A stretch of DNA of 24,000 nucleotides, from contig NZ_JBAVYV010000215.1 of NCBI RefSeq assembly GCF_049588435.1, positions 1-24,000 on the forward strand, in the 5' to 3' direction. This document shows, piece by piece, positions 107 through 10,904 of the stretch; position 1 is the first letter of the stretch, and every line of letters starts with the position of its first letter. The notes beneath the pieces are model-generated. The model was not told where the DNA came from, did no database searches, and saw only the letters and a program-made list of their open reading frames with translations. The translations under genes were made by a program, and so were the position numbers. The DNA comes from Ilumatobacter sp. Lineage in GTDB: Bacteria > Actinomycetota > Acidimicrobiia > Acidimicrobiales > Ilumatobacteraceae.

Positions 107-1081
107 TACATCTGTGACGGTGTGCGCCCGAGCACCGCTCGTCCCGCGTCCGCACCCGCCCGGCCGTGGAAGGGCTACGGAAAGAAGCAGAAGTCGGGGC
201 GGAGCGTCGTCATCCTCGACACGGGCATCGCTGCTCGCGAGTTCATCGAGCCCGGCACCGGAGAGAAGGTCGACTTCTGCCCGAGGATGCTCACGGCGCT
301 CAGCGACGCATATCCGAACCGCTGGGAGGTTCCCGACAACGACAAGAATGCAGAGCCGGGGGAAGGCTTCGTCGACCCGGTCAGCGGCCACGGCACCTTC
401 ATCGCCGGCATCGTCCAGACCCTCGCACCGGGTACAGCGATCCTGCCGCTCAACATCGTCACCTCGTACGGTGATGTGGACGTCCTCACCGTGATGAAAC
501 AGGTCGTCGAACTCTGCGACAACGAGGAGCTCGGGCCGCACACCATCGTCAACATGTCGTTCGGCGGCTATGCGGACGAGAAGATGTCGACGCTGCAACG
601 TGCGATCCGCTGCATTCGCGACAAGAAGGCCGTCGTGGTGGCTTCGGCCGGCAACGACGCAACGGACCGCCCGGCGTTCCCGGCGTGTCTCCCACATGTC
701 GTGGGGGTCGGCGCTCTCGATCCGTACGGCCCCGCTCCGTATTCCAACTTCGGCGCCTGGGTGAATGCGTGCGCACCCGGCACCGACCTCGTGAGCGCGT
801 TCTACCGGAACTTCAACGGAAAGACCGAACTCCCAGAGTTGCCCGGAAGCTCGGATCCCGACAAGTACGAGTCATGGGTTCGCTGGACTGGGACGAGCTT
901 CGCCGCTCCAGTCGTGACAGCCGCGTTGCTCCGCGAGATGCGACTGACGAAGTGCGATGCCAACACCGCCGTCGAGCGGGTCATCGACGCTCCCGGACTC
1001 CTGCGAATCGCTGGGCTGGGCACCGTGGTCAACCTCGATCTGGGCGATTCGACGTGCCTGATGCCCTCAGGTCACTCGTGA
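2..1081 (+). CDS. Subtilisin-like (S8 family) serine peptidase, 5'-truncated by the window edge
   Basis: ORF is open to the window edge. Catalytic motifs occur in canonical order: D (VVILDTGI), H (SGHGTFIAG), N (ASAGND), S (GTSFAAPVV). Stop TGA at 1079-1081. No start codon or signal peptide is visible in the window. Confidence 0.9.
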   Translation: MFANPMFANPAYANPVYTSPVYANPVYANPTYADGYICDGVRPSTARPASAPARPWKGYGKKQKSGRSVVILDTGIAAREFIEPGTGEKVDFCPRMLTALSDAYPNRWEVPDNDKNAEPGEGFVDPVSGHGTFIAGIVQTLAPGTAILPLNIVTSYGDVDVLTVMKQVVELCDNEELGPHTIVNMSFGGYADEKMSTLQRAIRCIRDKKAVVVASAGNDATDRPAFPACLPHVVGVGALDPYGPAPYSNFGAWVNACAPGTDLVSAFYRNFNGKTELPELPGSSDPDKYESWVRWTGTSFAAPVVTAALLREMRLTKCDANTAVERVIDAPGLLRIAGLGTVVNLDLGDSTCLMPSGHS

Positions 1082-1083
1082 CT

Positions 1084-1099
1084 CGCTCGGTTCCGAGCG
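1084..1099. terminator. Short GC-rich inverted repeat between convergent genes (possible bidirectional terminator)
   Basis: CGCTCGG-TT-CCGAGCG lies between the S8 stop (1081) and the SDR stop (1155). No U-tract and a very small loop, so this is weak. Confidence 0.25.
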
Positions 1100-1154
1100 C
1101 GAATCGAGCCGTCTCACGCTGCCGGGGTCGGGGCGATGCGATCGGTCGTGGGTG

Positions 1155-2030
1155 TCAGCCGGGAAGCGCGTTGACCTGAACGCCTGTCATGTCACTGATC
1201 CAGGCGCGATGGCGATCATCGTCGGGATCCGACTGCCCAGCGATCCATTCCTCGTCGGTGAGATCGAGTCGACGCCCGACGAGACATACCGCGTCGTCAC
1301 CGACGACGTGGCGCAATTCCGGAGCGTCGGCGGTGATCGCTCGCCAGATCACCTCGGCCACCATGTCGGGAGTGCCCGGCGATCCCATCAAGGCGCTCGC
1401 GAAGAACTCGCCCAACCGTCGTCCACCGATGTAGGGCGTGTCGGGGTTCTCCGGGTCCTGCATGCCCTTCGCGAAGATCGGGGTCATGATCACGCCGGGC
1501 TCGATCAGCGTGACCCGGATGCCGAAGGGCTTCGTCTCGGCGGCCAGGACCTCGGTCAATGCCTCGGCCGCGAACTTCGAGGTGGCGTAGGCGCCGTGTC
1601 CGGCGATCGCGACTCTGCCGGCCAGCGATGTCACGTTGACGATGTGGCCGGCCGAGCGATCACGCATCGACGGCAGCACCGCGTGGATGCAACGCAGGGT
1701 TCCCCAGGTGTTGGTGTTCATCACGCGCTGGAATTCTGAAACCGACGTCTCCTCGATGGAGTGCCCAGCTGCGATTCCGGCGTTGTTGATCAGCACGTCG
1801 ATCGGTCCGTGTTCCGCCTGCAATCTGTCCAGCGCGACGGAGACCGAGTCGTCGTCGTCGACATCCATGACGACGAGTGCGAGATCCAGATCCGTGGAAG
1901 CGTCGAGCAACGCCTGACCGCTCTCGAGCGAACGCACCGACGCATGCACCTCGTGTCCCTCCGTGGCCAGGCGCAGCGCGGTGGCGAACCCGATTCCGGT
2001 TGATGCTCCAGTGACAAGCGATCGCGTCAT
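1155..2030 (-). CDS. Short-chain dehydrogenase/reductase (classical SDR)
   Basis: N-terminal TGASTGIG Rossmann motif, NNAG, and the catalytic S...YATSK motif. Length 291 aa. ATG at 2030-2028. Confidence 0.9.
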   Translation of the reverse strand: MTRSLVTGASTGIGFATALRLATEGHEVHASVRSLESGQALLDASTDLDLALVVMDVDDDDSVSVALDRLQAEHGPIDVLINNAGIAAGHSIEETSVSEFQRVMNTNTWGTLRCIHAVLPSMRDRSAGHIVNVTSLAGRVAIAGHGAYATSKFAAEALTEVLAAETKPFGIRVTLIEPGVIMTPIFAKGMQDPENPDTPYIGGRRLGEFFASALMGSPGTPDMVAEVIWRAITADAPELRHVVGDDAVCLVGRRLDLTDEEWIAGQSDPDDDRHRAWISDMTGVQVNALPG

Positions 2031-2284
2031 CAGGTTCCCTTTCGGTTGGCTCGGCTGAACAGCCCGAAAGAAGCTAACACGGCGACTCCGGGCGAAATTG
2101 CGGAGAGCCTCGAGTGGTCTGGCTTCGCCGAGTCATTGCTGACCTGAGCGACATTCTCGACCCCATTCCGTACCAACCTGTGACACCAGATGGGGCCGAG
2201 AAACGTGAACCGAACGGAATCGGTGGCCAACGTCGGGACAGTGGACAACGTCGGCGCAAGGGTCAACGGTCGACGACGAGCCGG

Positions 2285-5125: not shown

Positions 5126-6478
5126 TCAGTCGGCGCGCGTGATGGTGAGACCTGCGTTGGCGGCGTTGTCGAAGTCGTCGTCGATGAGGACGACGTCGTG
5201 CCCAGCGCGGTCGAGGAGCGATGCAGCGATGCTGGCTCGGTAGCCGCTCTGGCAGTGCACGTGCACCGGCTCGTCGGGAACTTCGAGCAGGCGTCCGAGG
5301 AGTTCGTGCAACGGGATGTGCGTCGAGCCGTCGATGTGCCCGTCGGCGTACTCGTTGTTGCGGCGGGTGTCGATGATCCGTGGGTCGACCTCGCCGGCAA
5401 GATCGCCGAACGTCGCGACGGCATAACTGCTGCGATCGGCATCGTGCGCCCACGCGTCGAGACCTCCGTGGGCTGCGCCGGTCGGCCGGTCGACGCCGAT
5501 CCGCGCGAGCTGGCGTTGAGCCTCGGCAATCTCGTCGCGGCTGTCGGCGAGGAGCGTGACGGGCATGCCCCACGGGAGCAGCCACCCGAGATAGGTCGAG
5601 AAACCATCGGCGAGTTCGATGCCGATCGTGCCCGCAATGTGTGACGAGGCGAACTCGCGTCGCTTGCGCATGTCGACGACCCATTCACCGCGATGGATGC
5701 GACGGGCGAGTTCGACCGGGTCGACCTCAGCCGGTGGTGACAGGTCGACCGCCGTGGCTCCGGCGGTGTTGAGCGGACCCATCTGTGCGTAGTACTTCGG
5801 GAACGCGTCGAGGCCGGCGATGAGTTCGTTCACGAACGTGCTCTCGTCGGTGGCCGTGAGCGCGAGGTTGGCGCGTCGTTCGGTGGCGAGGGTTCCGTCG
5901 GATTCCATGTCGCTCGACGCCGATGCGCAGAAGCTTCCGAACCCGTGTGTCGGGTAGACGAGCGTGTCGTCGGGGAGCGCGTCTGCGAGTGCATGAACCG
6001 AGCGGTACTGGGCGTGAGTGAGTTCGTCGGTGGCGTCGGCGCTGATCAGGTCGGTTCTGCCGACGGTGCCGTACAGCATCGATCCGCCGGTGAACACCGC
6101 GGGTGGCTCGCCTTCGGCGACCACGACGTACGAAAGGTGGTGCGGCGTGTGCCCGGGGGTGTGGCGCACTTCAACACGCATCTTGCCGATCTCGACGGTG
6201 TCGCCGTCGCGGACAGCGTGGTAGTCGAAGCACAATGGTTCGTCGGCTGCGTGGAGATACGTCGCCCCGGTGATCCTCGCGAGGGAGAGACCGCCGCTGA
6301 CGTAGTCGTTGTGGACGTGTGTTTCGGCCACGTGGCTGATCGCGATGCCGACCTCCTCGGCCCGCTCGATGAGTCGTTCGATGTCGCGCTGGGGATCGAT
6401 GACGAGCCCGACTGTTCCATCGTGGACGATGTACGACCGGTCCCCGAGCGATGGTGTCTCGATGGTGATGACCTGCAT
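5126..6478 (-). CDS. MBL-fold metallo-hydrolase (persulfide-dioxygenase-like) fused to two rhodanese-like domains
   Basis: 450 aa from ATG 6478-6476, preceded by GAGGAGG. The MBL motif is THVHNDYVSGG, followed by HTPGHTPHH. The C-terminal rhodanese active-site loop is HCQSGYRAS. The first rhodanese-like domain lacks the Cys. Confidence 0.9.
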   Translation of the reverse strand: MQVITIETPSLGDRSYIVHDGTVGLVIDPQRDIERLIERAEEVGIAISHVAETHVHNDYVSGGLSLARITGATYLHAADEPLCFDYHAVRDGDTVEIGKMRVEVRHTPGHTPHHLSYVVVAEGEPPAVFTGGSMLYGTVGRTDLISADATDELTHAQYRSVHALADALPDDTLVYPTHGFGSFCASASSDMESDGTLATERRANLALTATDESTFVNELIAGLDAFPKYYAQMGPLNTAGATAVDLSPPAEVDPVELARRIHRGEWVVDMRKRREFASSHIAGTIGIELADGFSTYLGWLLPWGMPVTLLADSRDEIAEAQRQLARIGVDRPTGAAHGGLDAWAHDADRSSYAVATFGDLAGEVDPRIIDTRRNNEYADGHIDGSTHIPLHELLGRLLEVPDEPVHVHCQSGYRASIAASLLDRAGHDVVLIDDDFDNAANAGLTITRAD

Positions 6479-6696
6479 GGCTGCCTCCTCGATTGGTGTG
6501 CACGAATCGTAGGTACTGCCGCGACCCGACCGAGTTCGACGTGGGCCGAAGTTTGCCTGACAACCCGACTCCGGCCTGCGGCTGACGCCTCCGGTCGGCC
6601 ACGTGCCATCCGCCGGTACCCGGTCAGGCGACAGAAGCTGAGCCACGCCGGTGGACTTCTCTGCGTCCACTACGGTCGGGGCGGGAAGTTCATTCG

Positions 6697-6985
6697 ATGG
6701 CCGAGCAGATTTCCGAGCGTCCACTCCGCTTGGTTGACGTCGCCGGCGAGGTCGACCGGGTCGTCCTGTGCCTGGAACAGACCGACCCGGATGTCGCCAT
6801 CGATGAGTTGAAGCTGTTCGCATGCCGCGTCCGCGAAGCGATCGGGCGCGAGACCTACCGCGTCCGGATGTCGAGTTCTCTGGAGGCGATGGAGGCCGAC
6901 ATCGTGGCGCTCGTCGATGAGCTCGAGGACGCGGTGGCGAGTATTCGCAACATCCTGATCCCCGCAGCGGAGCGGTCGGGTCCGG
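6697..6985 (+). CDS. Hypothetical acidic protein (about 96 aa of convincing coding signal); 3' end unresolved
   Basis: ATG at 6697. Codon-position-3 GC is high only up to about 6985. The track ORF (6697..7401) has no stop until 7401, but its codon usage collapses after about 6985, where frame +1 takes over. No recognisable family. Confidence 0.35.
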
Positions 6986-7342
6986 GTGTCGCCAGATGCT
7001 CGCCGCGGAGCCGAGAACGTGCTCTACTCGATCGCTGCCGGTTTCGCGATGGCGTTCGCGATCGCCGCCGCGCTGATCTACGGCACGCCGAATGGCGCCA
7101 CCGACCTGTGGGTGTGTGGGGCGGCCTCGCTGTGCTGGCGTACATCGGCAAGGACCGGATCAAGGCCGGTGACCCTGGCCGACCCGGACTCCGGGATCCT
7201 GGTCAAGTCGTCATTGCCGCGGGCGTACGACGTGACGATCCTGCACCCACTCGCTCCGCCCGGCACCGAGACGGCGTGGAGCGCGGCGCGGGTCGTGAGC
7301 AGCCGCAAGGGCATCCGTCGGGACGACCAACACGAGGCCTGA
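6986..7342 (+). CDS. Small membrane protein (TM helix VLYSIAAGFAMAFAIAAALIYG) with a soluble C-terminal domain; weakly reminiscent of actinobacterial 2-TM/PH-like proteins
   Basis: GTG at 6986 with GGAGCGG upstream. Good codon bias except for 7139-7165, a run of rare codons (cgt aca tcg gca agg acc gga tca agg). There the other frame reads a plausible second TM helix (WGGLAVLAYIGKDRIKAG). Stop at 7340-7342. Confidence 0.45.
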   Translation: MSPDARRGAENVLYSIAAGFAMAFAIAAALIYGTPNGATDLWVCGAASLCWRTSARTGSRPVTLADPDSGILVKSSLPRAYDVTILHPLAPPGTETAWSAARVVSSRKGIRRDDQHEA

Positions 7343-7397
7343 GCGCCACCGAGCGTGGCACGGAACCGGCCTGGCGACAACCAGTACTGTCTTGGTC

Positions 7398-7592
7398 ATG
7401 AGCATCTCCGATGACGACATCAATGAACAACCTGCCGACGACGGGCTCGCACCGACCGCGGGCGGTGGCGCCGATGATTCTGACGGGACCGACGGTGATT
7501 CCGATGGGACCGACGGCGGTCATTCCGATGGAACCGACGGCGGAGACTCGGACGGAACCGACGGCGGAGACTCGGACGGCGCCGACTCCTGA
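7398..7592 (+). CDS. Small, highly acidic peptide (64 aa) ending in about five DSDGTDGG octapeptide repeats
   Basis: ATG at 7398 (the track ORF starts at TTG 7392). Sequence is MSISDDDINEQPADDGLAPTAGGGADDSDGTDG DSDGTDGG HSDGTDGG DSDGTDGG DSDGADS. Differences between repeat units fall mostly on third positions of this frame (gat/gac, tcc/tcg/tct, ggg/gga/ggc). That pattern supports translation in this frame. No clear Shine-Dalgarno sequence. Confidence 0.5.
   Translation: MSISDDDINEQPADDGLAPTAGGGADDSDGTDGDSDGTDGGHSDGTDGGDSDGTDGGDSDGADS
7476..7589 (+). repeat. Imperfect 24-bp tandem repeat (about 4.75 units)
   Basis: Units at 7476-7496 (21 bp), 7497-7520, 7521-7544, 7545-7568 and 7569-7589. 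The consensus is gaY tcN gaY ggN acc gac ggc ggN. Confidence 0.85.
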
Positions 7593-7690
7593 ACACTGGA
7601 TCGAGGTGGCTGGTCCGGCGCGTTCCGCATCCCGACGCGCCCGGCCTCGCCGACCTGGTCGGTGACGTCGACATCTTTCGGCGCGACGTC

Positions 7691-8812
7691 GTGTACCAAC
7701 GACCCCTGCACACGCGTGTGCAGGGGTCGGTCGATCGGTTTGCCGACAGCGAGACGCTCTGGCACACACTGCTGCGGGGCGGTACCCGCGCACCGGCGTT
7801 CCGGCTGGTCCGTGCCGGTTCCACCGTGCACCGCTCCGGCGTCACCCGGCGGGCGGGGATCGGCAACCGCAGCCTCGACGACGTGGTCGATCCGAATCGC
7901 GTCGTCGATCGGTATCGCAGCGGTGACACCGTGGTGTTGCAGGGGCTGCATCACACCGACCCGGCCCTCGCCGAGTTGGCGAACAACCTGGCGCTCGCTC
8001 TCGACCAGCCGATCCAGATCAACGCGTACCTCTCGCCGCCGGGGGAGCGCGGGCTCGATGTGCACTTCGACTATCACGACGTGTTCGTCGTCCAACTTGC
8101 TGGCGCCAAGCGGTGGCGCATCTGGGAGCCATTGGAGCGGACGCGCAATCCCGTCAAAGGCCGTCACACGATCGCCGGACCGAGCCTCGACGAGTTGGGC
8201 GATCCGCTGCTCGACCTGACGCTGCGTGCCGGCGATGTGCTGTATCTGCCACGTGGCTATCCGCACGTGGCCGAGTCGCTCGACGAGCTCTCCGACCATC
8301 TCACGATCGGCTTGGTCGCGGTGACCTGGCATCGGGTCGTCCGCACAGCCGTCGATGCCGAGGTCGCGGCCGGTCGGATGTCCGCACCCCTCCCGGTCGG
8401 GTTGCTCGATCCGAGCGCCGACGTCGCCGGCGACGTCGACACCTCGCTCGGACTCGACGCCCTTCGTGAACAGTTGTCTCCCGACGTCCTCCGACACTGG
8501 CTCGCACGCGAGATCTGGCGCCGACAGCCCGCGACGAGGCTCCGACCCCGGTGTCGTCTCGAACTCGGATCCGCCGCACTGGGCTTCGCGCCGGGGCCGT
8601 TGCTGTGGCTGACGTCGGTTGGCGACCGAGTTGTGCTCGGCCTCGGTGACCGACTGCTGGACCTGCCGATCGAGGCCTACGACTTCCTGGCGGGGATGCT
8701 CGAATCCGACGCCACCTTCCGTCCGGACGAGCTCGAGGGTCTCGACGAGGCATCGCGTGACGTCGTCCTCCGACGACTGTTGAACGAGGGCGTGATCGTC
8801 CATGCCGACTGA
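7691..8812 (+). CDS. JmjC/cupin-4 family Fe(II)/2-oxoglutarate oxygenase (YcfD/RoxA-like); true start probably upstream of 7691
   Basis: Facial triad HxD...H: VHFD (His 8063-8065, Asp 8069-8071) and GYPH (His 8264-8266). Surrounding motifs DVFVVQLAGAKRWRIW and GDVLYLPRGYPH parallel E. coli YcfD. The in-frame sequence 7610-7690 encodes LADLVGDVDIFRRDVVYQRPL, which resembles the conserved N-terminus of this family. That stretch has no ATG, GTG or TTG. Confidence 0.85.
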   Translation: MYQRPLHTRVQGSVDRFADSETLWHTLLRGGTRAPAFRLVRAGSTVHRSGVTRRAGIGNRSLDDVVDPNRVVDRYRSGDTVVLQGLHHTDPALAELANNLALALDQPIQINAYLSPPGERGLDVHFDYHDVFVVQLAGAKRWRIWEPLERTRNPVKGRHTIAGPSLDELGDPLLDLTLRAGDVLYLPRGYPHVAESLDELSDHLTIGLVAVTWHRVVRTAVDAEVAAGRMSAPLPVGLLDPSADVAGDVDTSLGLDALREQLSPDVLRHWLAREIWRRQPATRLRPRCRLELGSAALGFAPGPLLWLTSVGDRVVLGLGDRLLDLPIEAYDFLAGMLESDATFRPDELEGLDEASRDVVLRRLLNEGVIVHAD

Positions 8813-9695
8813 CTTCCAGTGCGCCGTCGTCGCCGCCGATCGAGGCGAGCCGTTGTTCGCCACGGCATCGCGGGTGAGGGGCTGGCTGCTGGTCGAGGTG
8901 CGCGGGTCGTGGGGCGACGATGCCGTGCACGAGAGCAAGCTCGGTGAGCACGTCCCACAGCATTGGAAGGAACAACTCAAACGGCGCGGTCTCAGAGTCG
9001 TGTGCATCCGCACGCATGCCCGCCGCGAGATGGACGGGGTGCACCTCTTCACGTGTCCGGCGCCGCTTCCCGGAGGGGATCCCCCCGTGCTCTGGCACCG
9101 CGAGGTCGGTTCGCTCGCCGACGTCGTCGACGCGACGGAGGGGATCGGAGCCGATACCGATCCCGGAACCGACTGGACCCGACACGCGTCGCCGATCTTT
9201 CTGGTGTGCACCAACGGTCGCCACGACCAGTGCTGTGCGAACCTGGGACGACCATTGGTGCGGGCCCTGCGGGAGTCGCGGTGGGCCGAGCACGTCTGGG
9301 AGTCTTCGCACGTCGGTGGTGACCGTTTTGCCGCCAACATCGTGGCGCTGCCCCGGAGTCTCTACTTCGGACGGGTCGATCCCGTCACTGCTCCGGCACT
9401 TCTCGATGCATTGGACGAGGGCCACCTTGATCTCGAGCGGTTCCGCGGGCGGACGTCGTTGTCGATCGCCGAGCAAGCGGTCGAACACTTCGTGCGCGTG
9501 GAGTTCGGCATCGACGACATCGACGGCGTCGCGGTCGGCCGACGCAACTCCGATGGCTCGTTCCCGGTGGACCTCGGGGACCGCTCGGTCGCGGTGCGCA
9601 TCCGGCGTCGCATGACCCTCGTTGACGAACCGCTCACCTGCAGCGGACCGGCGAACCAGCAAGTGCCCACGTTTTCGCTGCGCTCGATCGAGTGA
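8802..9695 (+). CDS. Sucrase/ferredoxin-like (thioredoxin-fold, putative Fe-S binding) family protein
   Basis: Motifs IFLVCTNGRHDQCCANLG and SSHVGGDRFAANIVALP..LYFGRV are typical of the Suc_Fer-like family. ATG at 8802 overlaps the JmjC stop (8810-8812) by 11 nt. Confidence 0.85.
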   Translation: MPTDFQCAVVAADRGEPLFATASRVRGWLLVEVRGSWGDDAVHESKLGEHVPQHWKEQLKRRGLRVVCIRTHARREMDGVHLFTCPAPLPGGDPPVLWHREVGSLADVVDATEGIGADTDPGTDWTRHASPIFLVCTNGRHDQCCANLGRPLVRALRESRWAEHVWESSHVGGDRFAANIVALPRSLYFGRVDPVTAPALLDALDEGHLDLERFRGRTSLSIAEQAVEHFVRVEFGIDDIDGVAVGRRNSDGSFPVDLGDRSVAVRIRRRMTLVDEPLTCSGPANQQVPTFSLRSIE

Positions 9696-9731
9696 TGCGA
9701 CGCGAGCGCGTGTGGGGCGGTCGTGTGAACG

Positions 9732-10904
9732 TCATCTCATCGCGGTGACGACGCGTCCGACGCTGTCCATCCCGCGGCCGACGATGCGTCGATACGCGCA
9801 GGGGTCGGTGGCGCCTTCGGTGACGATGATGAGCGCTGTCGCGTTGCCCTTGTCGGGGAGATCGTCGATCGCCGATGTGTCCGAAAGGAGCGCTCGCAGC
9901 CCGGCAAGCGATGCCGCACCGGTTTCTCCCGCGACGACCGCCGCATCCGCCAGATCACGCATGGCCTGACGCGCTGCGTCGTCGTCGACGGACACGAACC
10001 AGTCGACACCAGCGGCAAGTCGGGGCCACGCGATCGGCGAGGGCATCCCGCAATTGAGACCGACCATGATCGATTCGTGCGGGCCGGGTACCTGAGTCGG
10101 GGCGCCTGCAAGTGCCGATGTCTGCACACAGTTCGCATCGAGTGGTTCGACCCCGGCGATGACGGTCGGTCCGCGGTGATCATCGCGGTAGTGCGTGACG
10201 GCAGCGGCCATGAACGCACCCACACCCATCGGCACGACTACCACATCCGGGTGGCTCAGCCCGGTCGCATCGATTGCGTGGTCGACCTCGGCGAAGATCG
10301 TGGAGTACCCGTCGATGACGTGCGCCGGTGTGGCTTCGTATCCGGGCCACGAGGTGTCGGAGACGACCAGACACCGCTCGTTCGCTTCCTGGCTGGAACG
10401 GGCGACCGCATCGTCGTAGTCACCGTCCACGACCGTGACCGTTGCGCCTTCGCTCTCCATCGCCTCGATTCGGGCCTGTGCCATTCCCGTCGGCACGAAG
10501 ATCTCTGCCTGGAACCCGAGCAGCCGGGCCATGAACGCGACGGCGCGCCCGTGGTTTCCGTCGGTCGCGGTCGCGAGCTCGAACGGCTTGAGGTGTGCGA
10601 ATTCGGCTGCGAGATCGTTGATGTTCTCCCACGGGCCGGGTTCACGGCCCATGTGTGCGCAGATGGCCTGATATGTCGCCCACGACGCACCCAGGATCTT
10701 GAACGACGGCAGTCCCATCCGTCGCGTCTCGGTCTTGATCAGCAGCCGGCCGATTCCGAGATCGGCGGCGAGGTCCGGTGCGTCGAACAGCAGGCTCGGG
10801 TCGTAGGCCGGCATGCGGCGGTGGAAGTCGGCGACAGCGGTCGGGGCGGGTGGCCAGGATCGCGCCTCGCGCATCGGGTTGCGCGTCACGGTTGCGGTTG
10901 TCAC
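9732..10904 (-). CDS. PLP-dependent enzyme of the diaminopropionate ammonia-lyase family (fold type II)
   Basis: 390 aa. The N-terminal part parallels E. coli YgeX/DpaL (FH..., then TETRRMGLPSFKILGASWA with the PLP lysine). GTG at 10904-10902 is preceded by GGGAGAG. Confidence 0.85.
   Translation of the reverse strand: MTTATVTRNPMREARSWPPAPTAVADFHRRMPAYDPSLLFDAPDLAADLGIGRLLIKTETRRMGLPSFKILGASWATYQAICAHMGREPGPWENINDLAAEFAHLKPFELATATDGNHGRAVAFMARLLGFQAEIFVPTGMAQARIEAMESEGATVTVVDGDYDDAVARSSQEANERCLVVSDTSWPGYEATPAHVIDGYSTIFAEVDHAIDATGLSHPDVVVVPMGVGAFMAAAVTHYRDDHRGPTVIAGVEPLDANCVQTSALAGAPTQVPGPHESIMVGLNCGMPSPIAWPRLAAGVDWFVSVDDDAARQAMRDLADAAVVAGETGAASLAGLRALLSDTSAIDDLPDKGNATALIIVTEGATDPCAYRRIVGRGMDSVGRVVTAMR

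Follow-up and report, generated by a model that had tools for sequence, protein, structure and literature searches.

Analysis of a 24,000-nucleotide stretch of DNA from Ilumatobacter sp. (contig NZ_JBAVYV010000215.1, positions 1 to 24,000 of the forward strand; hereafter the window) revealed a compact unit of exactly three genes, encoding an acidic repeat peptide, a JmjC-type oxygenase and a sucrase/ferredoxin-like (Suc_Fer-like) protein, which is conserved across Actinomycetota with the peptide gene in first position. The small open reading frame (ORF) for the peptide, at 7398-7592, is a genuine, selected protein-coding gene. We propose, at a probability of roughly 0.5, that the peptide is the dedicated, hydroxylated substrate of the oxygenase and that the ferredoxin-like protein is a partner in this three-gene unit.

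The small ORF extends on the plus strand from ATG 7398 to TGA 7592 and encodes 64 aa with a net charge of -21. The ATG was preferred to TTG 7392, the start given in the ORF list, because all homologues open with MSIS. An N-terminal block with a spacer (MSISDDDINEQPADDGLAPTAGGGAD; 7398..7475, plus strand), marked by motif conservation and a ratio of non-synonymous to synonymous differences (pN/pS) of 0.11, is followed by five DSDGTDGG-type units and the TGA stop (7476..7592, plus strand), the units reading DSDGTDG / DSDGTDGG / HSDGTDGG / DSDGTDGG / DSDGADS in frame (7476-7589). Tandem Repeats Finder identified a period of 24 at 7493-7586, with 3.1-3.2 copies and 86-87% matches. A 64-aa ORF with about five octapeptide repeats at these coordinates, varying mostly at synonymous positions from unit to unit, had been described in the original prediction, and both the translation and the repeat analysis agreed with it: 31 synonymous versus 12 non-synonymous codon differences separate the units in the small ORF frame, compared with 4/37 and 0/41 in the other frames. 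The suggestion that the repeats resemble thrombospondin type-3 metal-binding loops gained no profile support in Pfam, EF-hand included. Neither thrombospondin type-3 nor DxDxDG Ca2+-binding repeats gave a profile match, and the spacing is D-x-D-G-x-D-G-G as opposed to D-x-D-x-D-G. The window peptide matched no Pfam family at E<=0.01 and nine diverse relatives matched none at E<=1, while no NCBIfam model fitted the peptide or these relatives.

To follow the small ORF through related genomes, 59 loci were taken from GTDB species genomes by means of an oxygenase profile and the three frames upstream of the conserved motif were translated; to cover the rest of the phylum, the profile was run on an even sample of 401 Actinomycetota genomes (248 genera) and 60 positive loci were examined. 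The ORF was intact in 53 of the 56 evaluable Acidimicrobiia loci, where it starts with MSI(S/T)(D/N)DDI(N/K), continues with D/G/T/S repeats and ends in ...DG(T/S/G/Q)D(S/A). The three remaining loci comprised L043, cut by a contig end with the 3' part of the ORF still visible, the frameshifted L061 and the degraded L056. An upstream acidic ORF was also seen in all 60 phylum-wide loci, one of them frameshifted and one cut by a contig end, and outside the class its N-terminal motif reads L-x-D-(E/D)-(D/E)-I-x-T-x-W. The absence of the ORF from orthologous loci, or the loss of its frame there, on which the original prediction would have been abandoned, was thus not observed. Peptide length ranged from 38 to 151 aa, and repeat number differed among relatives, always by whole codons. 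The repeat subtypes found across the phylum include DADGTDGD..., GEGPADGGSNPGGHDGGADGTA and TEDDENLDAPGEHSKDTGDE. The 97 peptides contain 30% Asp, 20% Gly, 13% Thr and no Cys, with a median net charge of -22, and D-G dipeptides (median of 9 per peptide) are the sole feature common to all repeat subtypes. A profile of the peptide matched 687 database proteins, all of them unnamed or annotated as 'hypothetical protein' and none with a Pfam domain. Among the disrupted copies, the ORF is frameshifted mid-repeat at L061 and L097, and at L056 the disruption of the ORF extends to the N-terminus of the oxygenase as well; such copies may be decaying or may reflect misassembly of repeat DNA.

That the repeat is no separate gene, being either a non-coding variable tandem repeat or a Pro/Thr/Ala-rich N-terminal extension of the oxygenase frameshifted in this assembly, might be suspected from the oxygenase frame, which is open across the repeat in many loci, and from Aquihabitans-type public gene calls, which open with MATPTAPTAETPTAPTAD... 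by reading the same DNA one base over. We consider this scarcely credible. The frame of the small ORF relative to that of the oxygenase is +1, +2 or 0 across loci, yet the acidic frame alone is preserved whatever the oxygenase frame, and in this frame alone a conserved ATG-led motif lies behind a -10 box or a Shine-Dalgarno sequence. Purifying selection also acts in the acidic frame alone: over the first 16 codons in the window's clade, pS was 0.56 and pN 0.064 (ratio 0.11), against ratios of 3.25 and 2.21 in the alternative frames. In the 12 loci where both frames coincide, a stop codon separates the small ORF from the oxygenase every time, and at L014, L016, L036, L051 and L053 this stop is accompanied by a separate ATG. 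Both the extension and the non-coding repeat are therefore refuted by the conservation of, and selection on, the acidic frame. In the Aquihabitans clade (L017-L025 and L043; proteins P0095, P0097, P0101, P0105 and P0109), the public calls misread the acidic peptide gene as a false Pro/Thr/Ala-rich N-terminus of the oxygenases and leave the peptide gene itself uncalled.

The signals in front of the small ORF indicate that it is the promoter-proximal gene and, in the window, probably lies on a leaderless mRNA. A -10-type hexamer, TACTGT (7385..7390, plus strand), is located 7 nt before the ATG, which matches the signature of leaderless actinobacterial mRNAs, in which a TANNNT ends about 6-8 nt ahead of the start codon and a Shine-Dalgarno sequence is missing. 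Of 96 loci, 48 have such a TANNNT ending 6-8 nt before the small ORF, peaking sharply at 7 nt, and no other position within 40 nt of the start has more than 4 hits. Practically all of these 48 loci belong to Acidimicrobiia. The other actinobacterial classes have a GGAGG-type Shine-Dalgarno sequence before the ORF and a TANNNT about 29-39 nt upstream. A scan of 6500-9900 for sigma-70 promoters and intrinsic terminators, not built for actinobacterial promoters, found none.

At the 3' end, the small ORF meets the oxygenase gene in a stop-start overlap, C-TGA (7589..7592, plus strand), in which a CTG in the oxygenase frame overlaps the TGA of the peptide. The oxygenase frame contains no ATG, GTG or TTG from 7499, after a stop at 7496, to GTG 7691, the first canonical start; upstream of the latter lies the conserved N-terminus of the oxygenase (7607-7690), with the motif W-L-V-R-R-V-P-H-P-D-A-P at 7607-7642, corresponding to (H)W-x-V-R/K-R-x-P-H-P-D-A-P-x-L-x-x-L-V-x-D in the homologues. 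Initiation at GTG 7691 would delete this segment, and the window's clade as a whole lacks a canonical start for it. Most likely the oxygenase starts at CTG 7589 by termination-reinitiation, as canonical GTGA and TTGA equivalents occur at other loci: among 97 loci, the peptide and oxygenase overlap in 46 (CTGA in 38, GTGA in 7 and TTGA in 1), and a canonical start lies nearby in 45. The junction GACTCCTGA / GACTCC-TGA is invariant in 13/13 loci of the window's clade, and at L011 an in-frame stop immediately precedes the CTG equivalent to 7589. Since high-GC DNA often has a C in front of TGA, the tetranucleotide is no proof on its own. For 12 members of the clade, RNAalifold did not support a conserved junction hairpin: it returned -12.2 kcal/mol, a covariation term that was unfavourable (+0.96) and only 3 compensated pairs. 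The distance of about 20-100 nt once given between the repeat ORF and the JmjC gene needs to be corrected, since the conserved coding sequence starts at or directly after the peptide stop.

The oxygenase gene itself (7589..8812, plus strand; 407 aa if initiated at CTG 7589) encodes a JmjC Fe(II)/2-oxoglutarate (2OG) oxygenase of the ribosomal oxygenase (ROX) type, matching PF08007 (JmjC_2) at 2e-24. The intact HxD...H triad ascribed to it in the original prediction was confirmed (H 8063-8065, D 8069-8071 and H 8264-8266): 106-107 of 107 family members have H152, D154, H219 and the 2OG-binding K167, which align to the NO66 motifs. An H156-D157 pair after the HxD is invariant and specific to the clade. 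By sequence, its nearest solved relatives in the PDB are NO66 (3e-16), then MINA53 and YcfD. The same order was obtained in a Foldseek search with an AlphaFold2 model of the L014 orthologue (mean predicted local distance difference test score [pLDDT] of 63; 86-95 in the C-terminal domain), which matched NO66 at 1.9e-20 over about 435 columns and YxbC, FIH and TYW5 far more weakly (FIH, 1.6e-8). The Pfam content is JmjC_2 alone, plus a sub-threshold Cupin_8, and no NCBIfam model fits either the oxygenase or the ferredoxin-like protein. From sequence and modelling, the enzyme appears to have the full NO66/MINA53/YcfD architecture, comprising a JmjC domain, a helical dimerisation domain and a C-terminal winged helix, and it looks functional.

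The ATG of the third gene (8802..9695, plus strand) overlaps the stop of the oxygenase gene (8810-8812) by 11 nt. Its product, correctly foreseen as a Cys-rich sucrase/ferredoxin-like protein of thioredoxin fold encoded with this overlap, scored 68.5 bits against PF06999 (cut-off, 34.9), and its AlphaFold2 model reached a pLDDT of 93.3. In Foldseek, the core matched the thioredoxin-like [2Fe-2S] ferredoxins of Aquifex and Azotobacter (1M2A, 1F37 and 5ABR) with a probability of 1.0, a target template modelling (TM) score of 0.62-0.71 and an E value of about 3e-3. Only these roughly 100 core residues have solved relatives; the N-terminal (1-125) and C-terminal (205-297) domains, although confidently modelled, have none. 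The candidate cluster ligands are C136 (9207-9209), C145 (9234-9236), H170 (9309-9311) and D174 (9321-9323), all on the plus strand, in a CX8C...HX3D pattern in which H170 is present in 79/79 sequences and D174 in 99%. C7, C136, C144, C145, H170 and D174 are invariant, and C280, within P-L-T-C, is kept in most sequences. The third protein thus seems to retain a metal or cluster site and looks functional. The yeast proteins Aim32 and Apd1 use the bis-histidinyl motif CX8C...HX3H (PMC8482512). The window protein shares with these Apd1/Aim32-type [2Fe-2S] ferredoxins the Pfam family, the thioredoxin-like core and the CX8C (C136 and C145), whereas the bis-histidinyl motif itself was not found in it, the second His being replaced by Asp. 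It further differs in about 200 flanking residues without solved relatives and in the additional C7, C144 and C280, invariant or nearly so, whose conservation may point to a disulfide or to a second metal site.

The extent of the unit was defined by which genes accompany the oxygenase. With the window proteins as tblastn queries, a Suc_Fer-like gene was found directly 3' of the oxygenase in 53 of 57 related loci, and the same arrangement occurred in about 50 of the 60 phylum-wide loci. The small repeat ORFs that the original prediction had proposed to look for ahead of such cupin-4/Suc_Fer-like pairs were present in essentially every related locus. The oxygenase profile was positive in 76 of the 401 sampled genomes (~19%) and in 47 of the 248 genera. 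Among named control genomes, no actinobacterium held both PF08007 and PF06999, and C. glutamicum held a Suc_Fer-like gene only. Clustering of the flanking ORFs from 45 loci revealed no further family in more than 16 loci and neither a protease nor an exporter, consistent with the earlier remark that none was visible in the window.

None of the other window genes searched for with tblastn (the ORFs at 6697-7342, the MBL-rhodanese gene and the diaminopropionate ammonia-lyase gene) was conserved at the 57 related loci. The two upstream ORFs at 6697-7342, previously thought to belong possibly to the same operon, were rejected as members: no homologue of either occurs in the 57 loci, and a separate -10 box precedes the small ORF. 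They matched no Pfam or NCBIfam model; the frame of the first stays open to 7401, although its later part translates into an Arg-rich sequence that seems to be out of frame. Farther out, on the minus strand, 5126-6460 encodes a metallo-beta-lactamase (MBL)-fold protein (glyoxalase II / persulfide-dioxygenase-like) fused to a rhodanese domain, and 9732-10904 encodes a diaminopropionate ammonia-lyase (NF006058, 313 bits).

The same genome holds just two JmjC_2 genes, and an acidic repeat ORF lies upstream of each. In the second pair (locus L002; G000 contig C225, ~40361-41675), a small ORF (2042..2221, minus strand, in locus coordinates) encoding 59 aa (MSNDKASISNDDISSGPTEDDENLDAPGEHSKDTGDEPTEDDENLDAPGEHSKDTGDEA) precedes a JmjC_2 oxygenase of 364 aa (886..1980, minus strand). 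This oxygenase is followed by convergent STAS and anti-sigma-like genes and not by a ferredoxin-like gene. The second-pair type is the only one present in three congeneric genomes, which lack the window's copy. The second peptide contains an SISNDDI motif and two copies of a 22-aa TEDDENLDAPGEHSKDTGDE repeat, so the two peptides of this genome share SISNDDI despite unrelated repeats, as would be expected if the N-terminal block were a recognition element for the oxygenase.

These observations can be arranged into a model. In the window, a promoter of its own would give the unit a leaderless mRNA; ribosomes finishing the peptide would restart at the overlapping CTG, giving less oxygenase than peptide, and translation of the ferredoxin-like gene would be coupled next via the 11-nt overlap. 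The N-terminal block of the peptide may serve as a docking or leader element for the oxygenase, which would hydroxylate side chains repeatedly within the Gly-flanked repeats. Known ROX targets sit in Gly-rich loops. The likeliest target would be the C-3 of Asp in a D-G context, a best guess made because D-G is the one feature of all repeat subtypes. The outcome would be a polyanionic peptide, hydroxylated in an O2-dependent manner, which may remain in the cytoplasm because no signal peptide, protease or exporter accompanies it, and the Fe-S-type protein may act as a redox partner or sensor of the reaction. We infer the enzyme-substrate relation, with hydroxylated Asp as the product, from the obligate co-occurrence of the two genes, the leader-plus-repeat layout and the published JmjC enzymes that modify co-encoded precursor peptides.

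Several points weigh against this proposal. AlphaFold2 prediction of the natural read-through fusion at L014 (one TGA read as Gly) gave a pLDDT of 29-35 for the whole peptide and no ordered docking, a weak negative in view of the shallow alignment (42 rows) and a mean pLDDT of 63. With a pI of 5.8, the oxygenase lacks an overall basic character and offers no evident electrostatic match to the -21 peptide. Pfam revealed no leader-binding domain of the RiPP recognition element (RRE) type in the enzyme (RiPP, a peptide made on the ribosome and modified after translation), and the 45 neighbourhoods yielded neither a protease nor an exporter to complete such a pathway. No ROX enzyme characterised so far is known to act on Asp; each hydroxylates Arg or His in a ribosomal protein. 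The target residue is itself a guess: His occurs in 17 of the 97 peptides, in some repeat subtypes, and could be the target there. A more far-reaching version is tentative and, in our view, rather unlikely as a whole. It would hold that the unit makes a ribosomally produced, repeatedly beta-hydroxylated poly-Asp peptide, that its enzyme is the first ROX-family oxygenase with a co-encoded substrate, assisted by an unusual Cys/His/Asp-ligated thioredoxin-like Fe-S partner, and that the product is an O2-/redox-dependent cytoplasmic polyanion for metal binding or signalling, representing a new modified-peptide family that is widespread in Actinomycetota and overlooked by gene finders.

Two other explanations accept the small ORF as a gene and assign it a different role. 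The peptide may be a dedicated partner of the oxygenase and not its substrate, for instance a pseudo-substrate or inhibitor, a Fe(II)/Ca(II) buffer or metallochaperone, or an RNA-mimicking adaptor, with the oxygenase hydroxylating, e.g., a ribosomal protein. The full ROX architecture, with NO66, MINA53 and YcfD as nearest relatives, is in line with this, as are the lack of another JmjC_2 gene in the genome able to serve as a ribosomal oxygenase, the missing docking signal in AlphaFold2 and the extreme polyanionic character of the peptides (Asp, 30%; median net charge, -22), such as is typical of molecules that bind metals or mimic nucleic acids. However, the module occurs in only ~19% of sampled Actinomycetota (76/401) and the window copy is absent from congeners, which would be odd for ribosome modification, and an N-terminal motif common to paralogous systems with different repeats fits a leader-plus-core arrangement better than a generic polyanion. 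A weak restart at CTG would imply more peptide than enzyme, which suits a substrate, although a buffer would be compatible as well. Taken together, we regard a non-substrate partner as unlikely, if still worthy of serious consideration.

We judge it improbable that the small ORF is mainly a translated leader (upstream ORF) whose acidic nascent chain gates the coupled oxygenase, e.g., through an intrinsic destabilisation of the ribosome by N-terminal acidic runs, in response to Mg2+ or the state of the ribosome, and that the peptide, once released, is of no importance. In bacteria, translation is known to be aborted by nascent chains that are acidic close to their N-terminus (PMC9718836, PMC11162784), and such gating would be in keeping with the acidic DDD cluster (residues 5-7) at the N-terminus of a leaderless ORF and with the oxygenase of the window's clade, which lacks its own canonical start or Shine-Dalgarno sequence and overlaps the ORF stop. 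Yet the ORF is still kept in the 45 of 97 loci where the oxygenase has a canonical start apart from it, the non-acidic motif positions (I, T and W) are conserved at the amino acid level, and in-frame repeat arrays of up to 151 aa would be needless for a sensor. The repeat Asp residues, moreover, fall at about 3 per 8 positions and not in consecutive runs.

By sequence and fold the enzyme belongs with the ROX family, but in its context it resembles none of the members characterised so far. Against the ROX enzymes (human NO66/RIOX1 and MINA53/RIOX2; YcfD/RoxA of E. coli and Rhodothermus), the window oxygenase is about 20% identical to NO66 and has the same HxD...H triad, the same 2OG-binding Lys and the same three-domain layout, as indicated by the ~435 Foldseek columns shared with NO66. 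Known ROX substrates are uL16 Arg81, uL2/Rpl8 His216 and Rpl27a His39. The known members are stand-alone genes with basic ribosomal-protein targets (Arg or His), whereas in the window clade a dedicated acidic repeat peptide gene always comes first and a Fe-S-type protein usually follows, and the enzyme has the extra invariant H156-D157 and the N-terminal W-x-V-R-R-x-P-H-x-D-A-P segment. The dedicated acidic peptide and the patchy distribution (76/401 genomes) argue against a ribosomal-protein substrate for the window oxygenase. Asp/Asn beta-hydroxylation by 2OG oxygenases is familiar from FIH, acting on ankyrin repeats, and from AspH, acting on EGF domains. There, C-3 hydroxylation of Asp in repeated motifs, at Ca2+-binding sites in the case of EGF domains, is the chemistry proposed for the window unit; AspH is not a JmjC enzyme, and FIH is a more distant structural match to the window oxygenase than NO66 (1.6e-8 vs 1.9e-20).

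In RiPP-type systems, a small precursor gene lies next to that of the modifying enzyme and is conserved along with it, as is the case here, and the conserved N-terminal block with variable repeats resembles a leader and core, although no docking signal appeared in AlphaFold2. By analogy, the unit would resemble a minimal RiPP pathway without RRE, protease or exporter. JmjC hydroxylases that act on co-encoded precursors include CzlI, which converts Phe to Tyr in curacozole (PMC11575548), and the ornithine hydroxylase BipG of biphenomycin (PMC12707348). As in the window, a gene for a Fe/2OG JmjC-type enzyme stands beside a small ribosomal peptide gene, and both enzymes modify the adjacent precursor in a manner dependent on its flanking (leader) sequence (PMC11575548, PMC12707348). 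CzlI and BipG are tailoring steps at single sites of short cores in large clusters with cyclases, proteases and transporters, and CzlI is nearest to YxbC; the window enzyme, in contrast, is of ROX type and the sole obvious modifying enzyme, with a long polyanionic repeat peptide and no protease or exporter. A cassette of peptide, oxygenase and ferredoxin-like protein was not described in the literature we searched, including a comparative-genomics study of bacterial JmjC neighbourhoods (PMC2938197).

Our findings also expose systematic annotation errors, in that the peptide gene is missed or misread as a Pro/Thr/Ala-rich N-terminus and the oxygenase start is miscalled because a CTG stop-start overlap is probably used. 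To our knowledge, bacterial ROX-type JmjC oxygenases are known solely as ribosomal-protein hydroxylases. That a large actinobacterial clade of such oxygenases is invariably accompanied by an unannotated polyanionic peptide of its own suggests that the ROX family has a second role, unexplored so far, and the peptide and oxygenase constitute a directly testable enzyme-substrate pair. If the product is rich in hydroxy-Asp, it would bear on metal handling and on oxygen/redox sensing in soil and water Actinomycetota.

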